Source of the DNA: a virus
DNA length: 17,536 nt
UHGV virus genome: UHGV-1676750
Direction: 5' to 3' (one strand)
The notes below the pieces were generated by a model. That model was not told the DNA's origin and made no database searches. It worked only from the letters and a program-made list of their open reading frames with translations. Both the position numbers and the translations under genes were made by a program. Shown here piece after piece: positions 2,587-15,557 of the stretch (within the stretch, counting starts at the first letter, position 1; every line of letters starts with the position of its first letter).

Positions 2587-2808
2587 ATGGACGCATCCAT
2601 ACTAGAAACACTTGCTCCAATCATCGGTGATACGCCCGTATCTGTGCAAATTAGCGCAGCACTTGAGCCAATGGCCTCAAAAAACTACGTGCACGATAAC
2701 TACGTCACACTCGATGATTTTGAAGAATTAAAAAGACAATTTGAAGCGCTAGTCGGAGATACGTCTGTTTCTGAACAAATTTCTACGGCGCTTAAAAATA
2801 ATAAATAA
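2587..2808 (+). CDS. Small fibre-motif protein (73 aa) carrying two copies of the VGDT-x-V-x-x-QI module
   Basis: ATG at 2587 with GAGGTG at 2575-2580; the track start at 2578 is a GTG inside the RBS. Contains IGDTPVSVQISAAL and VGDTSVSEQISTAL. Confidence 0.65.
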   Translation: MDASILETLAPIIGDTPVSVQISAALEPMASKNYVHDNYVTLDDFEELKRQFEALVGDTSVSEQISTALKNNK

Positions 2809-2835
2809 AACAATTCGTAAAAGGATGTGATAAAA

Positions 2836-3201
2836 TTGAGCACAAAAAAACTGCAAGTTTTAGATTATAAAATTAAGCAGGCTGAAAACGCTGATACTGT
2901 AGATAATAAGCACGCTTCTGACTTCGCATCCGCTACTGATATGAGCACGGCGCAAAATAATATTAGCGACCTTCAGGCAAAAGTCGGAGATACGCCTGTA
3001 TCTACGCAAATTACAAATGCTATCTCTTCAAACCGTATAGTTTACGTTCAAAACGAAGAGCCAGTTGATGCACCACCTGGATCGCTATGGGTGAATTTAG
3101 AATTGCAAAATACGGATGACTTTGTATCTGTTTATAAAGAAATTTTAATATTTGGAATACAATACGTTGCGCTTGTTGATAGTGATACTTTGATAATATG
3201 A
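2836..3201 (+). CDS. Short tail-fibre-like protein with one VGDT module and an EP…PPGSLW motif
   Basis: Probable TTG start at 2836, 10 nt after AAGGA (2821-2825); the GTG at 2827 is too close to the RBS. Contains KVGDTPVSTQITNAI and EEPVDAPPGSLWVNLE. Confidence 0.6.
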   Translation: MSTKKLQVLDYKIKQAENADTVDNKHASDFASATDMSTAQNNISDLQAKVGDTPVSTQITNAISSNRIVYVQNEEPVDAPPGSLWVNLELQNTDDFVSVYKEILIFGIQYVALVDSDTLII

Positions 3202-4603: not shown

Positions 4604-4735
4604 ATGATGGCTATGTTATGGGCACAGCAAATTATGCTTGGCAAGAAGACCTTTGCGCAGGTTCCTCGTCTACTAAAAGACAAGGTTCGTGAGATTCTAG
4701 TAGATTCTGGCTGCGAAGATCTAATTGCAGAGTAA
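4604..4735 (+). CDS. Small protein (43 aa), possibly XkdX-like (low confidence)
   Basis: ATG at 4604 with AGGAGG at 4591-4596; the longer track ORF from 4544 lacks an RBS. The size and position after the fibre and fibre-associated genes resemble the PBSX xkdV-xkdW-xkdX order. Confidence 0.45.
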   Translation: MMAMLWAQQIMLGKKTFAQVPRLLKDKVREILVDSGCEDLIAE

Positions 4736-4772
4736 TCTGAACGAATATTACGCTAGGAGGTGCAAATAAAAA

Positions 4773-5195
4773 ATGGCAGAGTATATAACAAAAATTAGAA
4801 CTATGAATGGCGACTTGCAATATGACTATAATTCACTGTATGACAAACCAGAATCTGATACTCAATTAGAAAAATCAGGGGCGTTTGCCGATGCTCAGGT
4901 GGTTGGAAATAAAATTAAGAGCATAAATACACAACTGAATACCATTAATAGTCAGATTACAGAGATCAAGAATAGCACTCACGTTCATTCTGCAAATGAT
5001 ATTACTAGTGGTACACTAAGTGTTGACAGGCTGCCAACAATTCCGATTATAAAAGGCGGAACTGGAGCTGAAAATGGGCAAGATGGATTAAAGAATTTAT
5101 TAGCATCTGGGGCAATGATTTTGTCTGCTAATCAGTATGGGACTGACTTTCCAAGCAATCCAATTGTAGGTCAAGTCTTCTTTTTAAAGGTATAA
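4773..5195 (+). CDS. Short tail-fibre-like protein with a GGTGA motif and a P…P…GQVFF motif
   Basis: ATG at 4773 with AGGAGG at 4755-4760. Contains DRLPTIPIIKGGTGAENGQDGLKNLLA, as in fibre N-terminal regions, and ends …PSNPIVGQVFFLKV. Confidence 0.65.
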   Translation: MAEYITKIRTMNGDLQYDYNSLYDKPESDTQLEKSGAFADAQVVGNKIKSINTQLNTINSQITEIKNSTHVHSANDITSGTLSVDRLPTIPIIKGGTGAENGQDGLKNLLASGAMILSANQYGTDFPSNPIVGQVFFLKV

Positions 5196-5261
5196 ATTGG
5201 TGAGCTTTATGGAAGATATTTTACAAACTAATAAGTTAGTTAGATTGGCGGTGATTGCATA

Positions 5262-6152
5262 ATGGGAAGTGCTAGTGTATCCGCACCCACAACAGAGGGG
5301 ACTGTATTTGCATCAATAAGCTGGGATACTACTCCAACAGTATCTATAAGTATAACAGGCGGATATGGAATATCATGGAGAATTAGAGGTCGCGGAACAG
5401 ATACATATGTATATTATGGTCCAACAACTTCTTCGTCTGGTACGTTTACGGCAAGTTATGGAACAAGTTATGTACTTCAAGCAGTTAGCGACGGAGGATG
5501 GAATAATACTGGTGATAGTGTATTTACCGTCACGCAAGATGTTCACACTCACTCTTATTCTTTTTATACCACTGTTGACCCAACTTGTACTGAACAAGGT
5601 TATGAGATTTGGCGTTGTAGTGGTTGTGGTGATTTAGATTATAGAAATTATACTAACGCCCTTGGACATAACACTGTCAATACTGTTGTTACCCCGACCT
5701 GTACCGAACAAGGCTATACAACTCACATTTGCTCTCGTTGCGGAGCCACCACAAGCGCTAATGATAATTATACAAGTGCATTGGGCCACAATGATGCTAA
5801 TACTGTTGTTGCTCCAACTTGCACGGAACAAGGCTACACTAAGCATATTTGTTCCCGTTGTGGAATCACTATAAGTGCTAATGATAATTACATAAATGCT
5901 CTTGGACATGCGTGGGACGATGGTGAAATTATACTAGAACCAACTTATACCGAAGATGGAATTATAAAATATTTGTGTACAAGGTGCGGCGAAACTCGTA
6001 CAGAAGCTATAGCTAAAAAAGTTGGTTCGGTGCGTATTTATAACGGTTCAACTTTTGATATTTATAGTATCTATGTACGTGGAAAAGCGCAATCATGGGA
6101 TTTATATGTGCCGTACATATATAATGGATCAAGTTGGGATTTATATAGTTAG
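5262..6152 (+). CDS. Protein with four tandem ~40-aa Cys-rich (zinc-ribbon-like) repeats; putative binding or adhesin-type structural protein
   Basis: Repeats of H-x(9-11)-PTCTEQGY-x(4)-C-[ST]-x-CG-x(10-12)-ALG; the last copy is GHAWDDGEIILEPTYTEDGIIKYLCTRCGETRTEAI. Weak RBS; a 17-codon uORF (5209-5262) overlaps the start. Confidence 0.65.
   Translation: MGSASVSAPTTEGTVFASISWDTTPTVSISITGGYGISWRIRGRGTDTYVYYGPTTSSSGTFTASYGTSYVLQAVSDGGWNNTGDSVFTVTQDVHTHSYSFYTTVDPTCTEQGYEIWRCSGCGDLDYRNYTNALGHNTVNTVVTPTCTEQGYTTHICSRCGATTSANDNYTSALGHNDANTVVAPTCTEQGYTKHICSRCGITISANDNYINALGHAWDDGEIILEPTYTEDGIIKYLCTRCGETRTEAIAKKVGSVRIYNGSTFDIYSIYVRGKAQSWDLYVPYIYNGSSWDLYS
5544..6011 (+). repeat. Four tandem ~120-bp coding repeats (Cys-rich module) inside the 5262-6152 CDS
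   Basis: Units at roughly 5544-5666, 5667-5786, 5787-5906 and 5907-6011. Units 2 and 3 are clearly similar at nucleotide level (shared …CAAGGCTA… and …GCTAATGATAATTA… stretches). Confidence 0.7.
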
Positions 6153-6163
6153 GAGGTGAATAG

Positions 6164-6880
6164 ATGCCTCAGAACATCTTTAAAATCTATGATGGTAGAA
6201 CGAACTTTTGGCAATGGGACACTAAGCAGAAATTGATTGTTTTAGATGATCGTATTACAGAAGTTCGTTTTTCTAATAGAAATATGGAACACTCAAAACG
6301 TAGACCTGTCTACACGGACAATAATGGAGTTAGAATTTGTAATGTGCCTGATGTGCTCTTGCAACTTCCTAAGAATCTTATAGCGTATGCGTGTATTAAG
6401 CAAGACGATGGGACTTGTAGCACAGTAAAAGCGGTCAAGTTTGCAGTTGCTAGACAGCCAATTCCTGCGGATTATGTGTGTGAGCAAGATGCAGTTATTG
6501 AAAACATTCTCGCAAAGATCGAGATGCTTGAGAATTTACTCAAAGAAGTTGAGTCTGGATCAAAAGAAATGAAGAAGTTCACTAGCATGGTGGAAGCTGC
6601 ACAATGGGCCAAAGAAAATGGCAACGCTGGTGACATTGTTGTCATCAAACTTGATGTAGGTTGGGTGCCTCATGTTATTGAAGACGGCAAGAGTCTAAGC
6701 GCTATTTGCAACTGTGATGGCGATGAGATTGTTCTTCAGCTCGACGGAGATGACCCCGACGGCATTAATGAAGACGAAGAAGATATGGTTCTGTATTATG
6801 ACGGTAATTATATTGACGAAAGTAACGATGTAATTCAGTATTTTGATGGCGGTTCCGCATCTGGTTTACAAACGGGGTGA
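6164..6880 (+). CDS. Hypothetical phage protein (238 aa) with an acidic C-terminus
   Basis: ATG at 6164 with AGGAGGTGA at 6151-6159. No named motif. Confidence 0.7.
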   Translation: MPQNIFKIYDGRTNFWQWDTKQKLIVLDDRITEVRFSNRNMEHSKRRPVYTDNNGVRICNVPDVLLQLPKNLIAYACIKQDDGTCSTVKAVKFAVARQPIPADYVCEQDAVIENILAKIEMLENLLKEVESGSKEMKKFTSMVEAAQWAKENGNAGDIVVIKLDVGWVPHVIEDGKSLSAICNCDGDEIVLQLDGDDPDGINEDEEDMVLYYDGNYIDESNDVIQYFDGGSASGLQTG

Positions 6881-6884
6881 GAGA

Positions 6885-7244
6885 ATGGCCGATATAAGAA
6901 AAGTAAAAACTGTATTTCAAATCAGGCGCTCGACGACTGCGGAATGGGAAGCGAATAAAGATGCAATTCCTGATGCCGGAGAGCCCTGTTTTGATTTAGA
7001 CTTTGGTATATTAAAAATTGGTGATGGAAAGACCGCTTATAAAGACCTCAAGATTATTGGTGCTGGCGCTTCAATATCTGACGATGGTCTTTATTTAATT
7101 GTTGATAATTTGCAGAAAGATATCGATGAATTAAAGATCCGCATTGAAAATATTTCTGTTGAAGATCAAATTAATGATGCTATGAGCGATATTGTGGATG
7201 ACTCAGAATTACAGCAAACTCTGGATTCTGTGTTAAATAATTAA
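6885..7244 (+). CDS. Short fibre paralogue: HylP-like N-terminal attachment domain plus a short helical tail (possibly a truncated or minimal fibre)
   Basis: MADIRKVKTVFQIRRSTTAEWEANKDAIPDAGEPCFDLDFGILKIGDGKTAYKDLKIIG matches the conserved N-terminus of Gram-positive phage fibre/hyaluronidase (HylP) proteins: FQ/K-R-R…AEW…GE…D…KIGDG…Y…L. Confidence 0.7.
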   Translation: MADIRKVKTVFQIRRSTTAEWEANKDAIPDAGEPCFDLDFGILKIGDGKTAYKDLKIIGAGASISDDGLYLIVDNLQKDIDELKIRIENISVEDQINDAMSDIVDDSELQQTLDSVLNN

Positions 7245-7263: not shown

Positions 7264-8679
7264 ATGGCAATTAAAAAAATCAAGACATTGTTCCAACTCC
7301 GCAGGGGAACCACTGCCGAATGGGAACTCAATAAATCCGTAGTTCCCGCCGCTGGTGAACCGTGTTTTGATCTAGACCTTGGTACACTCAAAATTGGCGA
7401 CGGCGTTAAAACCTATGAGCAATTAGATGTAATTGGCGGCGGCAATGTAGCGCTTTCTGCCGATGGCAAGTCTATCATTTTGGATGACGGCATTTTTAAG
7501 CTTGCTGGTTTTGCCGATGCTGAAACTGGTGCTCAGCCTCGCAAGAACGCCGACGGCAATATTGAGTGGGTTGTACCTTCTAGCGAAACTCTTGATGGTC
7601 TACAGACAATTGTCGCTGGTTTACAAACTGACGTTACTGGATTGCAAACTAGCGTTGCTAGTATTCAGGAGGTTCTAGCTCCATCCGATGAAGGTGCAAT
7701 GACTCTACTAGAGAGAGTTGCCGCAATTGAGGGTAAGGTTGGCGAAAGCTCTGTTGATGAAAAAATTAACACTGCCTTTGACGACTTTATGGCAAAAGTT
7801 TCTGATGATGGCATCGTCAATACTGTCAAAGAACTAATTGACTATGTAGCAGACCATGCGCCCGAGGCCGCTCAGATGGCCGCTGATATTACTAGTCTGC
7901 AAGAACTTGTTGGTAACACCTCTGTTGATGCCCAAATTCTAGCTGCCATTACTACAAGCGAAGCAAAAACCGCTGCTCTTTACAAGAAAGTAAAATATGA
8001 GATTTCTTCTAAGCCCGCCGAAGCTTTAGTGGACTATAGAGAGAAAGAAATCAGAATTATGTGTCCCGCTGATACTCAATTTGAGCTTCAGAATGTTGGT
8101 CCTACTGGTGATTCTACTAGATACTATATTGGATTTAAGGCATATGCCCCTGATGGCGCTGTAAGCTTTAAGGAAGATACTAAGGCTACCATTGAAGATA
8201 CTACTATGTATTACTTTGAAGGCAATGATTTTGCTGGCACTGATGCTTATGGTCGTAAGTATAGTATTGTATGGCTACCTGTGGCAAAGCATAATGATGA
8301 TGATACTTGGACTTATTATGGTACTAATTCTAGTGCTGCCAAGTATATTGGCTGGTACTACTCTGTCGAGTGGTATGGTGCTAATGGTAAGGTTATTGCG
8401 TCTGATATCATTCGTATTAATCTAAGTAATGAGGCTTGCCATAATGTGGTTGAGCCTTATTTTATGGGCCAAGTTGTTAAGGGAGTTAGCGTTGGTGGAA
8501 CTCTGCTTGATTTGATTGACAATAAGGTTAATATTAATGCCAGTGATATTGTTAAAGGGTCTGATGAAATTGCGGTTGCTGAGGACGGGACTCTAAGCAT
8601 TGGCCAAATTAATGTGTCCAAGCTGGTGCAGGATGAAGGCTCCGAGCTAGTCTTTGATGGCGGCGGGGCTTCTAGATAA
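7264..8679 (+). CDS. Tail-fibre protein with a HylP-like N-terminal domain, GLQTxVx heptad repeats and VGxxSVD-x-x-I modules
   Basis: ATG at 7264, 8 nt after AAAGGAAG. N-terminus TLFQLRRGTTAEWELNKSVVPAAGEPCFDLDLGTLKIGDGVKTYEQL. Three 21-bp tandem heptad repeats at 7597-7659. Contains LVGNTSVDAQILAAI and KVGESSVDEKINTAF. Confidence 0.8.
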   Translation: MAIKKIKTLFQLRRGTTAEWELNKSVVPAAGEPCFDLDLGTLKIGDGVKTYEQLDVIGGGNVALSADGKSIILDDGIFKLAGFADAETGAQPRKNADGNIEWVVPSSETLDGLQTIVAGLQTDVTGLQTSVASIQEVLAPSDEGAMTLLERVAAIEGKVGESSVDEKINTAFDDFMAKVSDDGIVNTVKELIDYVADHAPEAAQMAADITSLQELVGNTSVDAQILAAITTSEAKTAALYKKVKYEISSKPAEALVDYREKEIRIMCPADTQFELQNVGPTGDSTRYYIGFKAYAPDGAVSFKEDTKATIEDTTMYYFEGNDFAGTDAYGRKYSIVWLPVAKHNDDDTWTYYGTNSSAAKYIGWYYSVEWYGANGKVIASDIIRINLSNEACHNVVEPYFMGQVVKGVSVGGTLLDLIDNKVNINASDIVKGSDEIAVAEDGTLSIGQINVSKLVQDEGSELVFDGGGASR

Positions 8680-8726: not shown

Positions 8727-10664
8727 ATGGCTATTGAAAAAACACTTAATACTCGTCTGAAACTTCGTTACGATTCTCATGAGAATTGGCTTGCTAATGA
8801 TCCTACTCTGCTTGCAGGCGAAGTCGCTCTAAGTGCTGTATCTGTTAAGCAGGACGGCGTAGTTAACGAAGTCCCCAGCGTACTAATTAAAGTTGGCGAT
8901 GGCACTCATAAGTATTCCGAACTAGATTATGCTTACGCGAGGGCGGCAGATGTCATCGAGCAGGCTAAGAGTGCAGAAAAGCTAACCGATTTCATCAACA
9001 ATGTAATTGCTAGTGCTGGTATTGCCACTGACGAGGCTCTAACTACTCTAGCTGGTAAGGTTACTACTGCCGAAGGCAAGATCACTGCTCTAGAAGGTCT
9101 AGTTGGCGATACTGCCGTAGCCACTCAGATTCAGAATAAGATTGATGCTCTGAAACTATCCGATACCTATGCCGCAAAGTCTCACACTCATACTAAGTCT
9201 GAGATTACTGATTTTGCGCATACTCATGTTATTGGTGATGTAACTGGTTTAAGCGATTCTATTGCTGAAGCTAAGCAGACTGGCCTTGACGCAACTTCTG
9301 CTCTTAATACTTATAAGAATACTAATGATGCTGCTGTAAAGGCCAATACTGATGCAATTGCTGCTATTAACAACGCTGACACTGGTATTCTTGCTCAGGC
9401 TAAGACTTATGCTGACGGAAAGGATGCCGCTATTACCGCTGCTAAGAATGCTGCTGATGCTGCTCAGGCTGACGTTGACGCCCTAGAAGCTAAGGTCGGC
9501 ACTGTCCCTGCAGATACCACTGTTGTCCAGATGATTGCTGACGCCCAGGATGCTGCTACTTATGATGACACTGCTCTAAAGGGTCGTGTAAGCGCAAACG
9601 AGACTGCTATTAGCAAGCTAAATGGGCTTGTCGGTGACACCGCTGTCGCCACTCAGATTAGCACTGCTGTTTCCGATGCTAAGACTGAGCTAAAGGGTAG
9701 CGCTTCCGATACCGATGCTTCTGCTACTATTGCTGGCGCTAAGAAGTATGCTGACAAGCTAGATGCTGCTATGGATGCTCGTGTTGATGCTCTAGAGGCT
9801 GCTGTTGGCGAAGATGGTTCTGTTGCAGAGAAGATCACTGCCGCAGTTGAAGCTCTTGACGCTACCGTTGAGACCGCTGCAATCCCAGAAGGTCAGGACG
9901 GTATTTATGTAAAGGTTACCGAGGTTGATGGTAAGCTAACTGCTGTTGAGGCTACTATCGAAGTATCTAATGAGATTAATGCTGCTAAGTCCGAGCTTGA
10001 GGACAAGATTGGTACTGTTGCCGAGGGTAAGACTCTTGCTGGTCTAATCGCTGACAATGCTGCCGCTATTGAGGCTCATAAGACTGCGGTCGATGCTAAG
10101 GTAACCACTCTAATTGGTGCTGATACCGACAAATCCGTGCGTACTATTGCTAATGAGGAACTGGCTGCTCAGCTGATTCCTGAGAACGCTAAGGAATCTC
10201 TAAATACCCTACAGGAGATCGCTGCTTGGATTCAGGCTCACCCCGATGATGCCGCTACAATGAATACGGCCATTGCAAACCTAAAGGCGCTAGTTGGTGA
10301 CGAAAGTGTTAACGCTCAGATTAATACTGCCGTTGACAACCTAAAGAATAACGAGATTAAGAACGCAACTGATCGCATTGCAGATCTAGAGGCTGATACT
10401 CACACTCATGCCAACAAGGCCCTGCTCGATTCTTACACTCAGACCGAAGCTGACCTGGCTGACGCCGTTGCTAAGAAGCACGAGCACGCTAATGCTACCG
10501 AACTGGCCAAGTTCGTTGAGGGTGATAAGGATAAGCTAGATGCCGCCGTTCAGACTGTTACCGCTGGCACTGGCCTCACCGCAACTAAGACTGGTACTGA
10601 TGTAGCTATTGGATTTGACGATACTGTCACTTTCGTGTTTGACTGCGGCGATAGCTCCATCTAA
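8727..10664 (+). CDS. Long tail-fibre protein: HylP-like N-terminus (variant), Ala-rich helical shaft, three VGD-x-x-V-x-x-QI modules and HTH/HxH motifs
   Basis: ATG at 8727 with AAGGAG at 8711-8716. Contains LVGDTAVATQIQNKI, LVGDTAVATQISTAV, LVGDESVNAQINTAV, SHTHTKSEITDFAHTHV and DTHTHANKALLDSY. G+C is visibly higher than in flanking AT-rich genes. Confidence 0.8.
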   Translation: MAIEKTLNTRLKLRYDSHENWLANDPTLLAGEVALSAVSVKQDGVVNEVPSVLIKVGDGTHKYSELDYAYARAADVIEQAKSAEKLTDFINNVIASAGIATDEALTTLAGKVTTAEGKITALEGLVGDTAVATQIQNKIDALKLSDTYAAKSHTHTKSEITDFAHTHVIGDVTGLSDSIAEAKQTGLDATSALNTYKNTNDAAVKANTDAIAAINNADTGILAQAKTYADGKDAAITAAKNAADAAQADVDALEAKVGTVPADTTVVQMIADAQDAATYDDTALKGRVSANETAISKLNGLVGDTAVATQISTAVSDAKTELKGSASDTDASATIAGAKKYADKLDAAMDARVDALEAAVGEDGSVAEKITAAVEALDATVETAAIPEGQDGIYVKVTEVDGKLTAVEATIEVSNEINAAKSELEDKIGTVAEGKTLAGLIADNAAAIEAHKTAVDAKVTTLIGADTDKSVRTIANEELAAQLIPENAKESLNTLQEIAAWIQAHPDDAATMNTAIANLKALVGDESVNAQINTAVDNLKNNEIKNATDRIADLEADTHTHANKALLDSYTQTEADLADAVAKKHEHANATELAKFVEGDKDKLDAAVQTVTAGTGLTATKTGTDVAIGFDDTVTFVFDCGDSSI

Positions 10665-10743: not shown

Positions 10744-11589
10744 ATGCCAAATAAAGAAATATTGGCCCGTGTCAAGCAAAAAAGAGATACGAGCGCTAAC
10801 TGGGAAGCACGAAATCCAGTTATTTTAAATGGCGAGATTATTCTCGTAGATACCAACGCAGGCGAGCTTAGAGCTAAAATTGGCGATGGTACAAAAACGT
10901 ATACTCAGCTACCTTTTTCAGATGAAGCTTTAAGAAGCCTCATCAATGCAAATAAGGTTACGGTAGATAGTGCGCTGTCTTCTACTAGTACCAATCCTGT
11001 ACAGAATAAAATTGTAAACGCCGCCATTAGCAACTTGAATACTTTGGTTGGTGATACCTCTATATCTTCTCAAATCGAAACTGCTGTTGCTTCAAAGCTC
11101 GACGCCGCAGATGCGACTTGGGCTCAGATTTATGATTCTGGCGCAATTACATCAGAAGTAAACTCTATTGCGGGCATTGATATCACAGGTTATAAGAGTC
11201 TAATGGTTGCTGTTAAGTGTGTAAACACTACGAATACCGCCAGTACAAGAGCTGGTGCGGTAATTTTTACTGGCAATAATCAAGACTATGCGTTTAATAA
11301 TCTTTTTAGCAACCTGATTAAAAATGGTACAACAACTTCCGGTGCTATGGCTAAATTTAAGATCGTGGACGGTTTTATTATTTGTGAGACTGCTATGAGA
11401 GCAATTACTGCGGATGGCATTTTATCTGATGCCGAAGGGGTAGGAATTGATACATTAGCCCCAGTAAGTAGTGGTCTTATTAAGTGTACAAACGCAGTCA
11501 CTACAATGGCCGTTTCTAGTGCGGCTCAGTCTGCAGACCATTACTACGGTGTTGGTAGTAGAGTTATTGTTTGGGGGTGTAAGGTATAA
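10744..11589 (+). CDS. Tail-fibre protein with a HylP-like N-terminal domain and one VGDT module
   Basis: N-terminus ILARVKQKRDTSANWEARNPVILNGEIILVDTNAGELRAKIGDGTKTYTQLPF. Contains LVGDTSISSQIETAVASKL. Confidence 0.8.
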   Translation: MPNKEILARVKQKRDTSANWEARNPVILNGEIILVDTNAGELRAKIGDGTKTYTQLPFSDEALRSLINANKVTVDSALSSTSTNPVQNKIVNAAISNLNTLVGDTSISSQIETAVASKLDAADATWAQIYDSGAITSEVNSIAGIDITGYKSLMVAVKCVNTTNTASTRAGAVIFTGNNQDYAFNNLFSNLIKNGTTTSGAMAKFKIVDGFIICETAMRAITADGILSDAEGVGIDTLAPVSSGLIKCTNAVTTMAVSSAAQSADHYYGVGSRVIVWGCKV

Positions 11590-11963
11590 TGGCAAATAAA
11601 ACAATTACAGCATGGGTAAATGGTGCAGTTCAGTCAATTAGTGTTCCAGACGTGGCATATACTGCTCCTAAAGTTACCATTGAGGACAAGGTTAGTGCTC
11701 TTATTGCTACAGTGACACTGCCAGTCGCTGATTGGGCGGGTTCAGCAAGTCCGTATTATCAGACGATAGACTCTAATATTTTTACCGCCAATAGTATGGT
11801 TGATTTACAGCCAACCCCTGAGCAGCTTGCGGAATGGCAAGATGATGGACTGGCTTTTAGCACCACAAATGATAATGGAGTGGTGAAGGTATATGTTGCT
11901 GGTGGTGTACCTGCTGCCGATATTACTGTACAGATTAAGGTACAGGAGGTGGTTGTCATATGA
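11589..11963 (+). CDS. Hypothetical protein carrying a ~85-aa domain that is also present at the C-terminus of the 16021-16617 product
   Basis: TAATG overlap with the upstream gene. TLPVADWAGSASPYYQT…DITVQIKVQEV parallels TIPVNWVGTSAPYTQD…EVPIQVEVI in 16021-16617. Confidence 0.7.
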   Translation: MANKTITAWVNGAVQSISVPDVAYTAPKVTIEDKVSALIATVTLPVADWAGSASPYYQTIDSNIFTANSMVDLQPTPEQLAEWQDDGLAFSTTNDNGVVKVYVAGGVPAADITVQIKVQEVVVI

Positions 11964-12928: not shown

Positions 12929-14266
12929 ATGAAGAAGTTGACGCATGAAGAATTTATTGAGAAAGTAACGAAACTCAACGAACATGTTGCAAATGGTGAG
13001 ATAGAAATATTAAGTCAGTATATAAACCAAAGAACTAAAATTAAATGTAAATGTGCCATACATAATACTATATGGGAGAGATCGGTACAAAGCCTTTACG
13101 AAAATAGTGGTTGTGAAGATTGTAAATATGAATTAAGTGGAAGAAAAAGACGGTTTTCACATGAAGAATTTGTTGAAAAGATAAAGGTTTTAAATGATGA
13201 AATTATAGTTTTGGGACATTATACAACGATGAATAAATCAATTGAATTTCAATGTAAATTTGGTCATATATGGACAGCCAAGCCTTATAGCATTATCAAT
13301 GGGCATCAATGTCCATATTGTGCTGGGCAAAAACCTATAATTGGGAATAATGACTTATGGACAACAAGACCAGACGTTGCAAGTTTATTAAAAAATCGTG
13401 ATGACGGATATGGTTTGATGGAATTTAGTCAGCGTAAAGTAATATTTATTTGTCCAACATGCGGTAACGAAATCATAAAATCAGTTCAACGTGTATCAAT
13501 AGATGGGCTTGTTTGCCAAAGATGTTCTGATGGTGTATCATATCCGAATAAATTTGCAAGAGCATTTTTAAATCAACTACTTGGTAATAATTTTAAATGT
13601 GAGTATCAACCTGATTGGGCCAAACCATATTATTATGATAATTATTTTGAATATGGTAATAAGAAATATATTTTGGAGATGGATGGCAGTTTTCATTATA
13701 TTTCAAGACAGTTGACCAAACAGTCTCTTGATGAACGAAAAAGGATTGATGCATTAAAAGATAAACTTGCTGAGCAACATAATATTCGTGTTATTCGTAT
13801 AGAGTGTATAAAATCTAATTGTAATTACATAAAGAATAACATTTTACAATCCGAGTTGAGTTTAGTTTTTAATTTATCTAAGATTAATTGGGATTTATGC
13901 GACCAAATGGCGCAAAGAAGTTTGGTTAAAGATGTTTGTAATTTATATATGAACGGAATAAAAGATTTGCATAAAATAGCAGAAATATTGCATATTAGCA
14001 AAAGTACGGTATATGTATATTTGGTTAGAGGTTCTAAGTTTGGATGGTGTGATTACGATGGGAAGAATGCTCATTACTTGAAAATTTCTATTCCAATAAT
14101 TGTACTTGATGAAAATAACAATGCTATACATAAGTTTGATAGTATTAGTGCGTGCAAAGAAGAGATGAAAAAAATGTACGGATATTCATTTGATAGAAAT
14201 ACTTTGAAAAAAGCTTGTGAGTATTCTATTTCATATCATGGATTTAACTTTAAATATGCGTATTAA
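12929..14266 (+). CDS. Multi-domain homing-endonuclease-like protein: tandem zinc-ribbon modules, a Vsr/DUF559-like PD-(D/E)xK nuclease core, a helix-turn-helix and a NUMOD1-like C-terminal DNA-binding domain
   Basis: Two ~60-aa repeats ([TS]HEEF[IV]EK…LN…C-x-x-H…W…G-x-x-C-x-x-C) and a third CPTCG…CQRCS module. KKYILEMDGSFHYI…DERKRIDALKDKLAEQHNIRVIRIE resembles the DUF559/Vsr-like endonuclease motif. KIAEILHISKSTVYVYL is HTH-like. The C-terminus IPIIVLDENNNAIHKFDSISACKEEM…YHGFNFKY parallels the C-terminus of the GIY-YIG protein. Very AT-rich. RBS GGAGGT at 12915-12920. Confidence 0.65.
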   Translation: MKKLTHEEFIEKVTKLNEHVANGEIEILSQYINQRTKIKCKCAIHNTIWERSVQSLYENSGCEDCKYELSGRKRRFSHEEFVEKIKVLNDEIIVLGHYTTMNKSIEFQCKFGHIWTAKPYSIINGHQCPYCAGQKPIIGNNDLWTTRPDVASLLKNRDDGYGLMEFSQRKVIFICPTCGNEIIKSVQRVSIDGLVCQRCSDGVSYPNKFARAFLNQLLGNNFKCEYQPDWAKPYYYDNYFEYGNKKYILEMDGSFHYISRQLTKQSLDERKRIDALKDKLAEQHNIRVIRIECIKSNCNYIKNNILQSELSLVFNLSKINWDLCDQMAQRSLVKDVCNLYMNGIKDLHKIAEILHISKSTVYVYLVRGSKFGWCDYDGKNAHYLKISIPIIVLDENNNAIHKFDSISACKEEMKKMYGYSFDRNTLKKACEYSISYHGFNFKYAY

Positions 14267-14336
14267 CAATACAAAATTAATGTTTAAAGTAATTAGTGAA
14301 ATAATAAAGTCTAAAATACTAAGGAGGAGTTTATAT

Positions 14337-15557
14337 ATGTCTAACCCCAATTTCAATCCTACGTATAGCTCGAACTTAATTTGGAGAGATGAAGACGACA
14401 CTCGTTGTATTACTGATGACCTAGATAATATCGAATCCGACATCACTGCACTCGAAACAGGCAAGGCCGACACTAACCATACACATACCGGATATGCTAC
14501 TACAGATCACACTCATACAGGCTACGCCGCAGCAGATCATACCCACACTGGCTATGCGGCGGCTGCAGACGTAACTACACTACAAAATTTGGTTGGAGAC
14601 ACTAGTGTATCTTCTCAGATCAGTACGGCTATTGCGGGCAAGGTTGATGCTGTGGAAGGTAAAGGCTTGTCTACCAATGACTATACGACAGCCGAGAAGA
14701 ATAAGCTTACTGGAATTGATACAGGAGCTAACAATTATGTGCTTCCAACTGCAAGCAGCACTACTCTTGGCGGTATTAAAACTGGGGATAACATTACTAA
14801 TTCGTCTGGTACGATTAGTCTAACAAAAAGCAATGTCACGTCAGCTTTAGGATATACTCCATTTGGCAGTAGTACGTTGTCAATGGCCAATGGTGGTACT
14901 GGCAGCGCTCAGGTTGTTAATGCTCCAAAGAATGCCATATTGAAGAAGGCAAACGATGGGAACTATGTGTGGTATACTCAGACAAAAAGTGGGGCTTTCT
15001 ACGCTACTGCAACAGATGGAGTTCCGAAATTCGGTGTACTGCCCAAGGCATTAGGTGGCACAGGTGCGGATTTCAGTAATATTCCAGCTAATGCTATTAT
15101 TCGTAATTCTGGTTCTGGCGGTAGTGACTTGTACTATTTTGCAACTGGCAATGGGGCATGCTATGCCACATCAGCTAATGGGTATCCGACTTTTGGTACA
15201 TTGCCCGTAGCGCAAGGTGGCACTGGCGAAACTACTGCTTGGACAAATGGTACAGTTACGAGTTTGAATAGTACTACTATTACATCATACCAATTTGCTG
15301 TTTTCCCCTATTTAAATAAGGCATTTATTAGGCTTAATGTGCTATTAGGTAGTGCTTTAGATGCTGACGAAGCTAGATATATAGTAATGCCGTCAACTGT
15401 TGCAACTGCACATACTGCTTTGTCTTGCTTTAATATTGCTGGATATGATATTCATTGTGGTATGGCTAGCGATAGTGGCATTTATGTAATTAATTGTGGT
15501 ACTGCTTCAATGCCCAATACTGTACGTCTTTATATTGCGGGATGGTATTCAATCTAA
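14337..15557 (+). CDS. Tail-fibre protein with an HTHTGYA triple repeat, one VGDT module and repeated GGTG motifs
   Basis: ATG at 14337 with AAGGAGG at 14321-14327; the track ORF from 14217 overlaps the upstream gene and lacks an RBS. Contains NHTHTGYATTDHTHTGYAAADHTHTGYAAA, LVGDTSVSSQISTAIAGKV, and three L-x-x-x-GGTG motifs (MANGGTGSA, PKALGGTGAD, PVAQGGTGET). Confidence 0.8.
   Translation: MSNPNFNPTYSSNLIWRDEDDTRCITDDLDNIESDITALETGKADTNHTHTGYATTDHTHTGYAAADHTHTGYAAAADVTTLQNLVGDTSVSSQISTAIAGKVDAVEGKGLSTNDYTTAEKNKLTGIDTGANNYVLPTASSTTLGGIKTGDNITNSSGTISLTKSNVTSALGYTPFGSSTLSMANGGTGSAQVVNAPKNAILKKANDGNYVWYTQTKSGAFYATATDGVPKFGVLPKALGGTGADFSNIPANAIIRNSGSGGSDLYYFATGNGACYATSANGYPTFGTLPVAQGGTGETTAWTNGTVTSLNSTTITSYQFAVFPYLNKAFIRLNVLLGSALDADEARYIVMPSTVATAHTALSCFNIAGYDIHCGMASDSGIYVINCGTASMPNTVRLYIAGWYSI
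14475..14564 (+). repeat. Three tandem 30-bp coding repeats, each encoding [ND]HTHTGYA-x-x
   Basis: aaccatacacataccggatatgctactaca / gatcacactcatacaggctacgccgcagca / gatcatacccacactggctatgcggcggct. Confidence 0.75.

Follow-up and report, generated by a model that had tools for sequence, protein, structure and literature searches.

Locus and gene content

The window, meaning the whole 17,536-nucleotide stretch of viral DNA analysed here (UHGV-1676750), belongs to the genome of a tailed phage of Bacillota (Firmicutes) type. Tail-fibre-like genes are present, at least two of them with an Mtd_N domain, as are GIY-YIG and HNH homing-endonuclease genes; XkdX/CD1375-like small genes are found in syntenic contigs. 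The junction under study joins a gene of the tail-fibre module to a downstream Cys-repeat gene, referred to by its start position as the 5262 gene, across a leader that contains a short open reading frame (mini-ORF). Both genes lie in the same reading frame. Positions are those of the window.

4773-5195, plus strand: upstream tail-fibre-module gene, a listed ORF of 140 aa with the C-terminal end ...GQVFFLKV and the stop codon TAA 5193-5195
5196-5261, plus strand: leader (spacer), the 66-nt gap between the upstream TAA 5193-5195 and ATG 5262
5199-5204, plus strand: weak Shine-Dalgarno-like GGTGAG of the mini-ORF, 4 nt before ATG 5209; -7.4 kcal/mol, the weakest of 21 starts
5201-5224, plus strand: conserved block TGAGCTTTATGGAAGATATTTTAC, covering the mini-ORF start region; 3 of 24 columns variable among four 66-nt variants
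5209-5262, plus strand: mini-ORF, ATG 5209-5211, 17 codons MEDILQTNKLVRLAVIA, then TAA 5260-5262
5225-5245, plus strand: variable middle of the mini-ORF, seven codons, changing at about the neutral rate and never acquiring an in-frame stop
5247-5256, plus strand: Shine-Dalgarno GGCGGTGATT of the 5262 gene, inside the mini-ORF and 5 nt before ATG; -15.9 kcal/mol
5260-5264, plus strand: TAATG stop-start overlap, in which TAA ends on the first base of ATG 5262-5264; unchanged in every leader-bearing locus
5262-6152, plus strand: main gene, 296 aa, with a conserved N-terminal domain, a Cys-repeat centre and a conserved C-terminal domain

The upstream gene gives weak PHROG tail matches and has 31 homologues. 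The N- and C-terminal domains of the 5262 gene are common to relatives of 413-431 aa with a different centre. Throughout this family, an N-terminal domain of ~90 aa and a C-terminal domain of ~50 aa are conserved around a fully exchangeable centre, which is built of Cys-repeat units in the window and of unrelated ~80 aa repeats in other members (window 5262-6152; L008 2477-3718; L010 2990-4270; L011 2947-4242; L014 2486-3631). The number of Cys units differs even among close homologues of the 5262 gene (255-304 aa), and the window holds a 120-nt tandem repeat at 5646-5885, with two copies 73% identical, that codes for these units (PTCTEQGYT.H.C.RCG...ALGH).

Other repeats were recorded across the window. 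A 23-nt direct repeat, CCyTTGACAAyACAAAATTAATG, is present in three copies (854-885, 1813-1835 and 14260-14282). The first forms a near-consensus promoter (TTGACA, 17 nt, TGaTATACT), and the other two each lie at the 3' end of a homing-endonuclease gene, one GIY-YIG (1006-1833) and one HNH-like (12929-14266); these two genes have a similar leader, aatgRtgttWtggaggtaac. This arrangement suggests that the endonuclease cassettes were inserted at promoter-like repeats. A ~42-nt motif coding for L.GLVGDTSV..QI recurs across several tail-fibre-like genes (repeat families D1 and D2; 2740-3012, 7143-7184, 7738-7950, 9090-9671, 10281-10334, 11047-11088 and 14580-14621) and could represent a coiled-coil or fibre repeat common to them, or a recombination substrate.

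The relatives compared below are short metagenome contigs from ENA and Logan. Window DNA from 4700 to 6200 had no match among GenBank phages, IMG/VR gave none to the 5262-gene protein or to two spacer patterns, and GTDB genomes gave none to a profile of the upstream-gene protein. A pattern search with GGYGGTGRNNNNNTAATGGGAA in GTDB genomes and IMG/VR listed 185 matches, all by chance, and tblastn gave no relative.

Start site of the Cys-repeat gene

A sequence-only reading of this stretch had held that the 5262 gene lacks a convincing Shine-Dalgarno (SD) site and that its true start may lie elsewhere; neither point survived. The SD GGCGGTGATT is among the strongest of the 21 gene starts compared in the window, strength being taken as the energy of the duplex with a Bacillus-type anti-SD, and its layout is that of gene 16617 (GGAGGTGATT followed by 5 nt). 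In all leader-bearing loci, the main-gene SD ranges from -12.8 to -16.7 kcal/mol, stronger than most of those in leaderless relatives (-8.9 to -13.2). Because its own SD is strong, the 5262 gene can recruit ribosomes without the leader.

The start codon itself is fixed at 5262 by the in-frame TAG 5241-5243, after which no in-frame ATG, GTG or TTG occurs before 5262, and by the conserved MGS N-terminus. The four closest homologues all have M1-G2-S3; MG[S/T/N] opens the protein in eleven related lineages, distant relatives with an unrelated centre among those that share it, while L008 begins MAIS and the L055 type MAST.

Two further events were considered for the 3' end of the upstream gene. Reading on past TAA 5193-5195 into the same-frame 5262 gene is excluded by in-frame TAA, TAA and TAG codons in the spacer. 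A sequence of the X XXY YYZ slippery type, T TTA AAG, lies in the zero frame at 5183-5189; a -1 shift there would add a five-codon tail only, ending at TGA 5201-5203, and no meaningful product is expected from it.

Anatomy of the mini-ORF

The mini-ORF is present as the same reading had described it, running from ATG 5209 to TAA 5260-5262 and overlapping the 5262 start. Its frame is open back to the alternative starts TTG 5197 and GTG 5200, giving a possible length of 20-21 codons. From the upstream stop, the mini-ORF start is thus 4 nt (GTG 5200) or 13 nt (ATG 5209) away, and 4 nt in the 60-nt allele described below. The weak SD-like sequence in front of it is unconserved, with anti-SD duplex energies of -5.4 kcal/mol in L004 (AATGAG) and -5.6 kcal/mol in the L049 type. 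On the minus strand, no ORF of at least 20 aa crosses the spacer.

The mini-ORF and the 5262 gene are co-oriented and share 1 nt, and the downstream SD lies within the mini-ORF. The same stop-start geometry joins real gene pairs of the window, by TAATG at 10744-11589/11589 and 16021-16617/16617 and by ATGA at 11960 and 12448; stop-start overlap is a normal gene arrangement in this genome.

Leader alleles among relatives

Twelve junction types were recovered. A 66-nt leader occurs in four sequence variants (window/L002, L003, L004/5/6 and L010/13) and a 60-nt leader in two (L049/50/54, among which L050 has one base different). Seven types (L007, L008/9, L011, L014, L015, L051-53 and L055-58) are leaderless: either 13-15 nt that include an SD separate the two genes, or the downstream start overlaps the upstream stop. 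The leader is dispensable, since these seven related junction types do without it.

Wherever a leader is present, it keeps the ATG-GAA start, an open frame of 17-18 codons, the SD and the TAATG end. Five spacer versions were compared, namely the four 66-nt variants and the 60-nt allele, of which L050 is an extra one-base variant; the corresponding mini-ORF peptides are MEDILQTNKLVRLAVIA, MENILQTSRSVGLAVIA, MENILRTSMLIRLAVII, MEDILQMSKLTRLVVVV and MEKVFVENIYWIRGAVRM. Two indels, of 9 and 3 nt and each divisible by three, separate the two length classes. Their middles are unalignable, the 60-nt allele having as its counterpart 11 unrelated codons that are likewise free of stops. Of the conserved block, this allele keeps only ATTGATGGAAAA, the start codon region, yet the ORF is kept.

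The surrounding sequence is mosaic. L054 (17-642) and L051 (1369-1950) share ~410 nt of upstream-gene sequence at 100% nucleotide identity, but from the last two codons of that gene onwards they are unrelated; the leader is present in one and missing from the other. Between L049 (1108-2000) and L010 (2501-3400), the flanks are 80-100% identical, whereas the leader and the first ten main-gene codons are only 53-70% identical and form a second mosaic island. From the breakpoints in these two pairs, it follows that leader alleles have been exchanged by recombination. The leader itself belongs to the downstream gene module and travels with it. The window and L010 have the same 32 nt at the beginning of the spacer, even with an identity of only 66% between their upstream proteins.

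Probable maintenance of the open frame

Taken alone, the mini-ORF of the window is within chance expectation. In dinucleotide-preserving shuffles of the spacer, an overlapping ORF with 15 codons or more arose in 3-4.5% of cases, rising to 9-13% when the TA before ATG was held fixed, and a comparable overlapping upstream ORF precedes 12 of the window's 461 ATGs. What lifts it above chance is that the same arrangement is found in every related leader-bearing locus (L003, L004/5/6, L010/13 and L049/50/54).

Across the five spacer versions, stop trinucleotides number 0 in the ORF frame, compared with 17 and 7 in the other two frames. When the observed numbers of substitutions were placed at random, the ORF survived in all four 66-nt variants with a probability of 0.07-0.16; eleven random codons with the composition of the middle of the 60-nt allele are free of stops with a probability of 0.23. 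If a length change is assumed to preserve the frame with a probability of 1/3, these figures combine to a probability of ~0.01 that the frames are open by chance, a rough value in that the region is mosaic and the variants, although related, are treated as independent. Statistical support for maintenance is moderate, and the mini-ORF is probably no accident.

Conservation within the spacer is uneven. Pairwise divergence is 12-26%, compared with 48-62% at upstream-gene 4-fold sites (Fisher p between 3e-6 and 0.008); part of this low spacer divergence could reflect recent exchange, the region being mosaic. Among the four 66-nt variants, variable columns amount to 3/24 at 5201-5224, 12/21 at 5225-5245 and 5/16 at 5246-5261; the first block differs from the middle at Fisher p=0.0035, and the middle varies at about the neutral level. 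Constraint thus sits on the two translation-initiation regions (5201-5224 and 5246-5264), with the stretch between them free to change if it stays open, a pattern that would fit selection on initiation and not on the peptide. By codon position 1, 2 and 3, the variable columns number 7, 8 and 3, with no excess at third positions; therefore, the amino-acid sequence of the mini-ORF is not under selection.

Alternative explanations

The conservation of the spacer could instead mark a non-coding cis element, such as a regulator site for late or tail-fibre expression, an element of mRNA stability or processing, or an unusual promoter, in which the open frame would be incidental. We regard this as unlikely, though by no means negligible: block 5201-5224 is far better conserved than neutral sites, the window and L010 share their 32 identical nucleotides, and the mini-ORF peptide is unconserved. 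Searches for such an element argue against it. The spacer contains no sigma-70-like promoter and no intrinsic terminator. Its predicted RNA fold is no better than that of shuffled sequences (MFE -17.2 against a shuffle mean of -17.35, z=0.06), the alignment consensus consists of just two weak 4-bp stems totalling -4.3 kcal/mol, and a 4-bp stem around the AUG is indistinguishable from controls. No Rfam family matches the leader, and neither the spacer nor the block is copied elsewhere in the window. The 60-nt allele, moreover, has nothing of the block beyond ATTGATGGAAAA but keeps the ORF.

Distinctly unlikely, in our estimate, is that the leader is a neutral scar of tail-fibre-module exchange, with an ORF that is open by chance and has no role. 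The junction is indeed a recombination point, as both breakpoint pairs attest, the presence of the leader is patchy among close relatives, and a single overlapping ORF of this size does arise in shuffled spacers at the frequency given above. However, the rate of divergence is two- to fourfold lower in the spacer than at 4-fold sites, and tracts of recent exchange would not easily produce the uneven conservation within the spacer; the ORF has also survived in two deeply diverged alleles with indels of 3n and zero in-frame stops. One specific origin, tandem duplication of the upstream 3' end with SD and ATGG, looks suggestive on inspection, yet local alignments scored no significantly better than shuffles (p=0.05-0.3).

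A functional micropeptide, for instance one serving tail-fibre assembly, is very improbable. The ORF is maintained, and different alleles share ME[DNK][IV][LF] at the N-terminus and R[LG]AV close to the C-terminus. The latter residues, however, are the main-gene SD read in the mini-ORF frame, and the invariant third positions of codons 2-5 point to constraint on nucleotides rather than on amino acids. Purifying selection on amino acids is not seen, as substitutions fall mainly at codon positions 1 and 2 and the middle is unrelated between alleles; the peptide has zero matches in Pfam and PHROG, and some relatives have no such ORF at all.

That the 5262 gene is without a usable ribosome-binding site and relies entirely on the mini-ORF, starts at another codon or, as a variant, is made as a frameshift fusion with the mini-ORF is scarcely tenable: the TAATG overlap speaks for it, but the gene has a strong, conserved SD and a conserved MGS start, TAG 5241-5243 both blocks upstream starts and closes the main frame to a fusion, and 5244-5261, by reading, has no slippery X XXY YYZ heptamer for a -1 shift.

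Proposed relay between two tail-fibre-module genes

We favour, with moderate confidence, the view that the leader is a translated relay ORF coupling two genes of the tail-fibre module, beside SD-driven initiation. The mini-ORF would then matter for being translated and not for the peptide it encodes. Ribosomes ending the upstream gene at UAA 5193-5195 would restart 4-13 nt further on, at GUG 5200 or AUG 5209, in front of which the SD is weak; they would cross the leader and the strong SD of the main gene over 17-20 codons, terminate at UAA 5260-5262 and restart at the overlapping AUG 5262, with the strong SD 5 nt upstream holding the terminating ribosome. Termination-reinitiation coupling works only at overlaps or very short gaps, and a gap of ~20 nt nearly abolishes it (PMC10666635). 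That short upstream ORFs may 'deliver' ribosomes to the gene behind them has been put forward before (PMC12548453). A relay of this kind would keep the two genes coupled across a gap of 60-66 nt that is otherwise too long.

Direct initiation at the main gene's own SD is also possible, making the relay auxiliary; because this SD is strong, the relay would only add to or tune direct initiation. In this respect, the sequence-only reading, which had suggested translation of the 5262 gene by coupling or reinitiation, holds in part: such translation is plausible from the stop-start geometry and the apparently maintained open frame, but it is not required, given the strong SD and the leaderless relatives. 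We infer that the mini-ORF is translated and that it would raise rather than lower expression of the 5262 gene; a ribosome crossing the main SD could equally reduce direct 5262 initiation, occluding the site and tuning expression down.

A broader proposal, speculative and quite unlikely in our judgement, is that the leader is a portable 'coupling adaptor' cassette, made up of a weak start, an open frame that is free to vary, a strong SD and TAATG. It would travel with exchangeable downstream modules and be kept by selection so that a new module stays coupled to any tail-fibre-module gene ahead of it, with at least two old alleles (66 and 60 nt) circulating by recombination.

Comparison with known systems

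In tap/repA of plasmid R1 and repY/repZ of the IncI-alpha/IncB plasmids, a leader ORF of ~20-30 codons has a stop that abuts or overlaps the main start; a stable RNA structure hides the main ribosome-binding site until translation of the leader opens it, under antisense RNA control. The present leader is alike in that its ORF stop meets the main start, but a sequestering structure is absent, with no significant or conserved fold in the 5262 leader (z=0.06, -4.3 kcal/mol). In phage f1, the start site of gene VII is inherently defective and has no SD, and Ivey-Hoyle and Steege reportedly described its coupling to gene V in 1989. There, as proposed here, a phage structural gene is fed by ribosomes from the preceding ORF, but the start site at 5262 is a strong one. 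Arrest or attenuation leader peptides (ermC, tnaC and secM) are marked by a conserved arrest motif with a terminator or alternative hairpins downstream; the present peptide is unconserved across alleles, and no terminator or hairpin accompanies it.

The closest likeness in layout is to the ATGA and TGATG/TAATG pairs coupled by termination-reinitiation (Huber et al. 2019, PMC6728339; 2023, PMC10666635). As in those pairs, the ORFs are co-oriented and overlap by 1 nt, the upstream ORF contains the downstream SD, and a single structural module holds the genes; such overlaps also occur at real gene pairs of the same phage. The difference lies in the upstream partner, which here is not a protein gene but an ORF of 17-18 codons with an unconserved product, placed in a leader between two real genes as a putative relay. 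Ribosome-delivering short ORFs (reviewed in PMC12548453, which cites Shell et al. 2015 on mycobacteria) likewise have a presumed role in their own translation and end at the start of the next gene; there, however, the ORF stands in for a missing SD or a leaderless start, whereas here the main SD is strong. As proposed, the case is ordinary translational coupling, a known kind of arrangement.

Implications

For annotation, the start of the Cys-repeat gene is fixed at 5262, with a normal, strong ribosome-binding site. In front of it, a very short ORF appears to be maintained for being read and not for its product. Close relatives with and without the leader, together with two diverged alleles, provide natural controls and make the junction an easy experimental test case. 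Established views are unchanged by this small but clean case. If confirmed, it would add a test case on how many unannotated phage mini-ORFs are functional, and it would show by what means co-expression of tail-fibre-module subunits is preserved in phages when modules are swapped.
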